Below, one piece after another: positions 9,787-10,994 of a DNA stretch of 64,000 nt. The translations under genes were made by a program, and so were the position numbers. The stretch is from Escherichia coli (GTDB lineage: Bacteria > Pseudomonadota > Gammaproteobacteria > Enterobacterales > Enterobacteriaceae). Each line of letters starts with the position of its first letter. The first letter of the stretch is position 1. A model generated the notes under the pieces. It was not told the origin of the DNA, did no database searches, and was given only the letters and a program-made list of their open reading frames with translations. The stretch lies in NCBI RefSeq assembly GCF_046105845.1, contig NZ_CP151004.1; one strand, written 5' to 3'.

Positions 9787-9962
9787 GCAGACAACTTAGT
9801 TAGAGTTAATTAGCTTATCAACCTCTGTAAGAGGTAAAGTTGTCACCTCTGCAACGTCTTCCCGAGACATTCCTTTACTCAGAAGACGCTGGGCGAATTC
9901 CTGACTTACCTCCTGTCTAACCGCCAGCCTTCCCTTCTCTTCAAACCACTGCGCCAACGTCT
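9787..9962 (-). repeat. Diverged direct duplicate of the rpnC 3' end (partner copy about 10053..10268)
   Basis: Copy A and copy B align base-for-base over about 176 bp (e.g. TCTGCAACGTCTTCCCGAGACATTCCTTTACT, GGGCGAATTCCTGACTTAC, CTTCAAACCACTGCGCCA); copy A lacks the 12-bp repeat block present in copy B. Confidence 0.85.
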
Positions 9963-9993
9963 GCCTGGTTTCTCTCCGTGTCTTTATTTCCAT
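9796..9993 (-). pseudogene. Orphan ORF homologous to the C-terminal tail of RpnC (gene fragment or stand-alone RpnS-like small protein)
   Basis: 65-aa ORF MEIKTRRETRQTLAQWFEEKGRLAVRQEVSQEFAQRLLSKGMSREDVAEVTTLPLTEVDKLINSN, close to the last ~60 aa of the adjacent RpnC; own ATG with weak AGGG 6-7 nt upstream. Confidence 0.5.
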
Positions 9994-10061
9994 ATGTTCC
10001 CTTAATTATCTGGTCAGTTAACAATAACAATTATCTGGCTAAAACTGATAATGCAGATAAC

Positions 10062-10274
10062 TTAGTTAATCAGTTTATCAATCTCAGCAAGAGGTAAATT
10101 TGCCATCTCTGCAACGTCTTCCCGAGACATTCCTTTACTTAGAAGACGCAGGGCGAATTCCTGACTTACTTCCTGTCTTCCCTGCTGAATCCCCTTCTCA
10201 ATTCCTTTCTCCATTCCTTTCTCAATCCCCTTCTCAATCCCTTTCTCTTCAAACCACTGCGCCAGCGTCATCAT
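10062..10274 (-). CDS. Putative intragenic small protein (RpnS-like), in-frame C-terminal 70 aa of rpnC
   Basis: In-frame ATG-ATG at 10274/10271 preceded by GGGAGGAG (10280..10287 on + strand, reverse complement) with 7-nt spacing; matches the described Rpn intragenic small-protein arrangement. Confidence 0.45.
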   Translation of the reverse strand: MMTLAQWFEEKGIEKGIEKGMEKGIEKGIQQGRQEVSQEFALRLLSKGMSREDVAEMANLPLAEIDKLIN

Positions 10275-10994
10275 TGACTCTCCTCCCGTTTCCCTGTCCC
10301 TCAACACACCATAAAACAAATCCGCTTGTTCAGTATGACCGCGTTGCAGCATATAGTTTTGCATGGCAACTAACTGACTTCCGCTAGTGTACCCTTCGTC
10401 GATCAGCGTGACCAGTTGCTCCAGCAATAACATTAAGTCGCGCTGGCGAATATGCTTTTGCAGTAGTTCGAGAATCGCAATCCGCCGGTGCTGCATGATT
10501 TCGTCATCCGGTGTGATGGTGATATCCACCAGCGGGAAAGGGTTGTTGTAAACGCGTCGCGCCAGCTCCGGCGAGTAAAACATATCAAACCAGCACATTG
10601 AGAGCGGATAAGGTGTGGCCTCGCCCTGATAAAACAGTATCGGCACCACCAGCGGCAGCTTATCGTGGTCAGCCTCCAGATGCCGGTGCATGGCGGCAAT
10701 AGAATAACGCATCATGCGAAAAGCCATTTTCTTATCTGGCTTGCTTTGATGTTCAATCACTACATGCAGATAACCGGGATTGCCCTGCATTTGCACGGAA
10801 TAGAGCACGTCCGTGCTGTGTCCTTTCAGGCTCTCTTCAATGAAACTCCCCGACTCTAAATGAAGCGTGTTGAGGTCACAAAGTTCGCGTAATTCCACTG
10901 GCAAATGTATCTCCAGAAAGTCGCGAGCCGTCTCCGCATGCATTAAAAATTGTTTAAATACCGCGTCATGCGGTGTGGTACTCGGTGCATCCAT
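10062..10994 (-). CDS. rpnC: Rpn-family (YhgA-like, PD-(D/E)XK) recombination-promoting nuclease
   Basis: 310-aa ORF; N-terminal nuclease-like core (…STDVLYSVQ…LHVVIEHQSK…), C-terminal tail with GIEKG repeats; located between panC and panD as yadD/rpnC is in E. coli. Confidence 0.88.
   Translation of the reverse strand: MDAPSTTPHDAVFKQFLMHAETARDFLEIHLPVELRELCDLNTLHLESGSFIEESLKGHSTDVLYSVQMQGNPGYLHVVIEHQSKPDKKMAFRMMRYSIAAMHRHLEADHDKLPLVVPILFYQGEATPYPLSMCWFDMFYSPELARRVYNNPFPLVDITITPDDEIMQHRRIAILELLQKHIRQRDLMLLLEQLVTLIDEGYTSGSQLVAMQNYMLQRGHTEQADLFYGVLRDRETGGESMMTLAQWFEEKGIEKGIEKGMEKGIEKGIQQGRQEVSQEFALRLLSKGMSREDVAEMANLPLAEIDKLIN
10179..10250 (-). repeat. In-frame 12-bp tandem repeat encoding (G-I/M-E-K)n in the rpnC tail
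   Basis: About six 12-bp units (CCCCTTCTCAAT / TCCTTTCTCCAT / TCCTTTCTCAAT ...) encoding KGIEKGIEKGMEKGIEKGIQQG. Confidence 0.85.

Follow-up and report, generated by a model that had tools for sequence, protein, structure and literature searches.

Translation from an internal start in rpn genes yields RpnS, a small C-terminal protein that counteracts RpnL, the toxic full-length nuclease (Zhong et al., 2023, PNAS 120:e2307382120; PMC10400941); in Escherichia coli K-12 an antitoxin role of RpnCS was reported in the same work. RpnC-S with one extra repeat failed to neutralise RpnC-L, and vice versa (Fig. 4D, PMC10400941), a specificity rule that was shown for one added repeat in K-12 RpnC only and not for a repeat-less partner. 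A stand-alone second copy of rpnCS was named rpnCSs in 2023; RpnCSs was found by phylogeny to derive from RpnC, RpnSs proteins were described as varying by four-residue repeats, and loss of rpnCSs was attributed to deletion or to fusion to the N-terminal part of rpnC (PMC10400941). A second stand-alone copy, ypaA/rpnESs of K-12, with which rpnCSs was compared, arose independently of rpnCSs, and its protein product was detected by tagging (PMC10400941). Although YpaA was tagged in that study, its main text and Discussion contain no functional test, expression test or role for RpnCSs, and the main text gives neither a frequency for rpnCSs, nor the anatomy of its junctions, nor a comparison of orphan and resident repeats within single genomes. 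A literature search returned no later work on rpnCSs after Zhong et al., 2023.

The window analysed here is a stretch of 64,000 nucleotides of E. coli DNA (NCBI RefSeq contig NZ_CP151004.1), in which panB (8057-8851), panC (8863-9714) and panD (11268-11648) were taken from the ORF list and lie on the plus strand, with two ORFs on the minus strand between panC and panD. The larger of these, rpnC (yadD; 10062-10994), encodes the 310-residue full-length Rpn nuclease RpnC-L, as identified from the ORF and from family profiles (Transposase_31, PF04754, E 4.7e-87; the Rpn family profile TIGR01784, 293 bits), and rpnC is also the name given by PGAP to its orthologues. An intragenic rpnCS frame of 70 residues (MMTLAQWFEEKG...KLIN) was placed at 10062-10274 on the minus strand by homology to K-12 RpnCS (PMC10400941), the putative start being an ATGATG with GGAG upstream. 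Within rpnC, a minus-strand array of five 12-nt units at 10188-10247 (Tandem Repeats Finder: period 12, 5.0 copies, 85% matches) encodes (I/M)EKG / IQQG four-residue repeats that are carried by both RpnC-L and RpnC-S. The smaller ORF (9796-9993, minus strand), hereafter the orphan, starts with ATG and encodes a stand-alone RpnS-type protein of 65 residues, MEIKTRRETRQ-TLAQWFEEKG-RLAV-RQEVSQEFAQRLLSKGMSREDVAEVTTLPLTEVDKLINSN. From the ORF list, BLASTP, TIGR01784 and the published description (PMC10400941), it is close to certain that this ORF is rpnCSs; it is no different in kind from the rpnCSs of Zhong et al., 2023, the feature is already known and was here correctly re-discovered from the raw sequence. 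The spacer between panC and rpnC measures 347 bp in the window and 73 bp in MG1655 (locus L003: panC 714-1565, rpnC 1639-2541), where no orphan is present.

The best local DNA alignment paired 9762-9939 with 10031-10199; the two copies agreed at 143 of its 169 ungapped columns (84.6%), and it scored 191, compared with a mean of 20.3 (sd 2.6, maximum 32) over 200 shuffles. A second collinear block, encoding TLAQWFEEKG, paired 9931-9960 with 10239-10268, and in rpnC the two duplicated blocks are split by the 12-nt array at 10188-10247, which Tandem Repeats Finder reported in rpnC only and not in the orphan ORF. The duplicated unit extends from the TLAQW codons to approximately 30 nt past the rpnC stop and is present twice in direct orientation, both copies being read on the minus strand: in rpnC the local alignment covers the C-terminal ~45 codons and ~30 nt of 3' flank (10031-10199), and the orphan copy comprises the TLAQWFEEKG block, the C-terminal domain and ~30 nt of 3' flank (9762-9960). 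The 5' junction of the duplication falls exactly at the T of TLAQW, directly after the MM start of RpnC-S. At the protein level, BLASTP of the orphan against RpnC residues 235-310 gave 44 identities over 76 positions (E 9e-24) with a single 16-residue gap at the (I/M)EKG/IQQG repeats, and the orphan matched positions 217-273 of the 273 positions of TIGR01784, that is, its C-terminal end (E 3.7e-7). The first-pass annotation, made from the sequence alone, had described a diverged direct copy of the rpnC 3' end (9787-9962 versus 10053-10268) that carries an intact 65-codon ORF with its own ATG, matches the RpnC tail and lacks the GIEK repeats, and had given the panC-rpnC spacer of K-12 as shorter. 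All of this was borne out, and its boundaries are essentially right, the duplicated unit being ~25 nt longer at the 3' side, to 9762 and 10031.

A minus-strand spacer of 68 nt (9994-10061) separates the rpnC stop from the orphan ATG; its rpnC-proximal ~30 nt are the duplicated 3' flank and the remainder is orphan-specific, with a Shine-Dalgarno-like AAGGG at 9999-10003, 5 nt from the ATG. This distal part of the spacer and the first 11 codons (MEIKTRRETRQ) together form an orphan-specific segment of 74 nt (9957-10030, minus strand; local alignment and blastn), which provides the orphan with its Shine-Dalgarno sequence, its ATG and 11 new N-terminal codons. The 74-nt segment, compared by local alignment with rpnC, with the 70 nt that precede TLAQW and with the entire window, scored 19, at the level of shuffles (16.7 ± 2.1), and for this reason the resemblance of RRET in the orphan to DRET in RpnC was taken as chance. 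The spacer was 68 nt long in 18 of the 18 two-copy loci compared, and its last 26 nt (TTAACTGACCAGATAATTAAGGGAAC) were invariant among those 18; shorter gaps between rpnC and the orphan were found in other loci (43 nt in L033, 20 nt in L037). Like rpnCSs, ypaA is a stand-alone RpnS copy situated immediately downstream of its own rpn gene (rpnE), and its repeat number likewise differs from that of the intragenic copy, YpaA of K-12 being one KLEG repeat longer than RpnES. In ypaA, however, the tandem duplication is clean, takes in the internal Shine-Dalgarno sequence and ATG (aaaaggagagattaATGactattgc twice) and leaves a 12-nt gap, whereas at rpnCSs the gap is 68 nt and 74 unrelated nucleotides supply a new Shine-Dalgarno sequence and an N-terminal extension of 11 residues.

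A sigma-70 scan of 9600-11300 gave no minus-strand promoter match, and the 68-nt gap contained no significant RNA structure (fold z -1.8). Because no minus-strand promoter match and no terminator-like structure in the gap were found, the orphan would be co-transcribed with rpnC/rpnCS. Between the convergent panC and rpnCSs lies a G+C-rich hairpin (aactggcgc...gcgccagtt, 9720-9748); the fold of 9705-9800 gave -33.6 kcal/mol (z -4.4) for the minus strand and -33.5 kcal/mol (z -3.1) for the plus strand, the same hairpin adjoins panC in K-12 too, and it is a likely terminator for both the panC and the rpnCSs transcription units. A reading of the region as an RNA gene was dropped, Rfam giving no match at E ≤ 1 across 9600-11300. 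The ORF, Shine-Dalgarno sequence, ATG and 11-residue N-terminus were intact in every sampled locus, save for the substitutions E2D and R9W, and all orphan length variants were in frame, a 6-nt deletion included. Over the conserved blocks, orphans had a pN/pS of 0.38 and resident tails one of 0.22; a ratio below 1 in the orphan could, however, reflect gene conversion in which the resident copy, itself under selection, was the donor, and not selection on the orphan. Judged from these sequence features, rpnCSs is probably expressed as protein.

An AlphaFold2 (AF2) model of the orphan product, of moderate confidence (pLDDT 70), contained helices at residues 6-39, 44-51 and 55-64. Comparison of the model with RpnA-S (7TH0) gave a TM score of 0.79 (target-normalised) and an rmsd of 1.1 Å over 41 columns at a Foldseek E of 3.4; the Foldseek search against the PDB gave no significant match, 7TH0 ranking 32nd amid generic HTH matches. 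The modelled fold would be compatible with that of RpnS. When the PDB was searched by sequence, the sole match was 8VD6, a designed protein with generic HTH-like repeats (E 2.8e-7); RpnA-S/7TH0 was not retrieved. In the Pfam scan nothing was found for the orphan ORF at E ≤ 0.001, and neither PF27070 (HTH_Rpn_C) nor DUF4351 (PF14261) was listed for the orphan or for full-length RpnC, using a library that may miss PF27070; precomputed weak matches to PF27070 HTH_Rpn_C are recorded on close relatives. PADLOC matches were marginal, namely RmrA for the orphan ORF (E 1.7e-3) and C3a178 for RpnC (E 2.5e-6).

RpnC-S and the orphan share the TLAQWFEEKG start of a long helix and a small helical C-terminal domain, with ~85% DNA identity across the part they have in common. 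RpnC-S, however, is read from the DNA of RpnC-L itself and so always matches it, whereas the orphan has MEIKTRRETRQ in place of MM, is devoid in the window of the five (I/M)EKG/IQQG repeats and ends with an additional -SN. Repeat matching was compared over a variable region bounded by WFEE(K/R)G and (L/F)LSKG, for which two-copy loci yielded 19 distinct resident/orphan combinations, sampled non-randomly and not phylogenetically independent. The resident and orphan regions were identical in none of the 19 combinations and equal in length in one (L011/L012), compared with 1.26 expected from random pairing, and the length differences ranged from -8 to +16 residues; in the window, the resident region has 31 residues and that of the orphan 15. 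The repeat match required of RpnS antitoxins was therefore not found in the orphan, the lengths being unequal in 18 of the 19 combinations. The sequences give no hint that the orphan stays matched to its resident nuclease, which argues against a simple cognate second inhibitor, and from the repeat mismatch together with the independent variation of the arrays between strains we infer that the orphan is non-cognate for resident RpnC-L.

A cognate second antitoxin, whereby RpnCSs binds resident RpnC-L in the manner of RpnC-S and raises the antitoxin dose, is the obvious reading of a "second copy of rpnCS" (PMC10400941) and was one of the functions suggested in the first-pass annotation, alongside that of a decoy; it draws on the homology to RpnC-S across the whole C-terminal domain, on the orphan's own Shine-Dalgarno sequence and ATG, and on a position directly downstream of rpnC from which the rpnCS transcript could be shared. 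This reading is weakened by a variable helix region that is 16 residues shorter than the resident one in the window and by lengths that differ across the combinations as for random pairing, when a single extra repeat abolished cross-neutralisation in the published assay (PMC10400941), and we regard it as unlikely.

Considered as a whole, the evidence favours with good probability the reading of rpnCSs as a non-cognate RpnS paralogue with a further role as partner of the resident tail in homologous recombination. The orphan would be transcribed together with rpnC/rpnCS, the next hairpin being the one shared with panC, and its translation would give a protein of 65 residues whose single long helix precedes two short ones, as in RpnS. 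The long helix of RpnS proteins forms the surface for dimerisation and for RpnL binding, with helix length setting specificity, and the orphan helix, devoid of the five resident repeats, would make RpnCSs an RpnS paralogue of different specificity. Crossover or gene conversion between the two copies would replace the C-terminus of both toxin and antitoxin at once, or would delete the orphan, as in the K-12-type allele.

Sequence support for exchange of the 3'-end cassette, which the first-pass annotation had raised as a further possibility, came from several alleles. Three RpnC fragments (P0052, P0077 and P0097) combine upstream rpnC sequence (...RDRETGG(E/K)SMMTLAQW...) with an orphan-type C-terminus (...AEVT(T/A)LSL(T/A)E(V/I)D(K/N)LINSN, ...AEVTALSLAEIDKLINSN). 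Mosaic orphan arrays composed of orphan-type and resident-type units were also found, the orphan of L004 reading FQKA-YQEV-RQEV-RQEV, and RLAV-RQEV of the window orphan matches the resident array RQEV-RLAV-RQEV of L016. The ancestry of the K-12 tail was ambiguous when judged by overall identity to both copies of 18 loci and was resolved via L036 only, a haplotype present with the same orphan in four independent metagenome samples (L036-L039), for which assembly chimeras between strains are conceivable. The resident tail of L036 is identical to that of K-12 as far as ...GAGATTGATAA, and from GTAAGTCAGGAATTC to the end of the panC terminator the 3' part of its orphan with the adjoining flank shows 100% identity to K-12, such that a single crossover in the ~135-nt shared stretch yields the exact K-12 rpnC allele (…KVINLI) and the 73-bp spacer. 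Since the K-12 tail corresponds to one crossover within the L036 haplotype, the orphan-less K-12 state is most simply read as a derived fusion of resident and orphan.

These mosaic alleles (the L004 orphan, and the window orphan compared with the L016 resident), the fusion alleles and the K-12 crossover product would equally be expected if the orphan were purely a recombination cassette, its sole selected role being that of a donor of alternative rpnC tails and its own translation being irrelevant. However, a silent donor needs no Shine-Dalgarno sequence, ATG or conserved 11-residue N-terminus, yet all alleles keep them, and exchange that is visible in sequence does not make exchange the selected function; a role confined to donating tails is accordingly considered improbable. 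A more specific proposal sees in the orphan a spare tail whose mismatch is deliberately preserved, providing a one-step specificity switch of an antiphage toxin-antitoxin pair. RpnC-L and RpnC-S share DNA, so one exchange would re-specify both, and the switch could allow escape from a phage-encoded RpnS mimic, the K-12 reference allele then being one switched (fused) product. The orphan protein, if expressed, might in addition regulate the locus by way of its HTH-like domain or neutralise RpnC variants other than the resident one. We hold this proposal to be doubtful.

The 74-nt orphan marker, counted at an identity of at least 95%, was found by blastn in 1555 of 5426 complete E. coli genomes (28.7%); all occurrences were chromosomal and, across these 5426 genomes, at this locus only and never on plasmids. 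A 681-nt query (9650-10330) was covered over at least 80% of its length in 1409 E. coli genomes. The order panD-rpnC-orphan-panC was retained in all loci compared, including Escherichia marmotae (L010) and metagenome contigs, and the exact 65-residue protein of the window is recorded in 591 blocks of the assembly collection. Orphan alleles in the protein database range from 56 to 77 residues, with M(E/D)IKTRRETRQTLAQWFEEKG and the C-terminal domain in common, and differ by the in-frame units FQKG, YQEE, RQEV and KGRLA, the window allele, RLAV-RQEV, being minimal. The PGAP labels for the orphan are inconsistent, comprising 'transposase' pseudogene, 'hypothetical protein' and 'RpnC/YadD family protein'; the rpn genes have been argued to be devoid of inverted repeats and target-site duplications and not to be transposases (PMC10400941). 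That the ORF is neutral debris, left without function by recombination at the 3' end of rpnC, would agree with its flagging by PGAP as a partial 'transposase' pseudogene in some genomes, with its absence from ~71% of E. coli, K-12 included, without known consequence, with the lack of a promoter match and with the ordinary-looking divergence of the 74-nt segment in E. marmotae, but is the least probable of these readings, given that the ORF, Shine-Dalgarno sequence, ATG and N-terminus are kept across E. coli, the cryptic Escherichia clades and E. marmotae, that pN/pS is 0.38 with every length variant in frame, even that arising by a 6-nt deletion, and that the analogous YpaA is made in K-12 (PMC10400941).

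The reading of rpnCSs as a non-cognate paralogue and recombination partner bears comparison with unexpressed donor cassettes. In such systems, for example Neisseria pilS, partial gene copies recombine with the variable part of a nearby expressed gene. The orphan is likewise a partial copy near an expressed gene, and its exchange with that gene is supported by fusion and crossover alleles. Unlike pilS, it has translation signals of its own and is probably made into protein, it is present as one copy rather than as a family, and it shows no sign of programmed or high-frequency switching.

The repeat array of the orphan is uncoupled from that of the adjacent nuclease, and repeat number has been published to set antitoxin specificity. 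More than a quarter of E. coli genomes keep such a non-matching tail copy. The K-12 rpnC that has been used in experiments may itself be a fusion of resident and orphan. If rpnCSs is a non-cognate partner or a recombination donor, it would show how a gene-within-gene toxin-antitoxin pair can change its specificity without passing through a toxic mismatched state.

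The stand-alone copy of the rpnC tail, rpnCSs (hereafter the orphan; window 9796-9993, minus strand), is a single gene annotated in three styles by RefSeq/PGAP in relatives of the locus (L001, the closest complete genome, 1647-1817; L009, 961-1140; L002, 1647-1844): as a pseudogene lacking its N-terminus and named 'transposase' or 'hypothetical protein', as an intact 'hypothetical protein', and as an 'RpnC/YadD family protein'.

Elsewhere in the window, Rfam gathering-level matches were obtained to the known enterobacterial sRNAs tp2 (34891-35004, plus strand, 103 bits) and STnc40 (46871-46940, minus strand, 82 bits), and to PssrA ('plasmid-encoded Shigella sRNA A'; 52587-52676, minus strand, 105.5 bits). 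On either side of the last is a large minus-strand ORF, one at 51444-52595 and the other at 52656-53918; gene order suggests that the pair is ftsZ and ftsA. A cell-division locus on the chromosome is an unexpected setting for a family named as plasmid-encoded.

Within rpnC itself, the 12-nt repeat is present in five copies (window 10188-10247) and the product is 310 aa long, as against 306 aa in all six fetched loci carrying the window's orphan allele and also in L001, which points to a recent expansion of the array in the window strain. Two loci depart from the usual 68-nt gap between rpnC and the orphan: in L033 (1757-1801) a 302-aa rpnC is followed by a gap of 43 nt, and in L037 (1195-1749) the orphan lies 20 nt downstream of a 177-aa rpnC remnant. 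Both may be additional rearrangement products of this junction. The 74-nt orphan marker (window 9957-10030, minus strand) was found at 1558 places in 1555 of 5426 complete E. coli genomes, with a maximum of three per genome; a few strains may have orphan tails in arrays, or two or more copies of the whole locus.

K-12 MG1655 (L003), which is without the orphan, was compared with L036 (1540-2090), one of four metagenome assemblies (L036-L039) sharing a resident/orphan haplotype, with window 9716-10277 alongside. Both the end of rpnC in K-12 (…EIDKVINLI) and the 73-bp spacer there are what one crossover between the resident tail (rpnC's own) and the orphan copy of this existing haplotype would give, so that the K-12 rpnC of published experiments may be a resident/orphan fusion.
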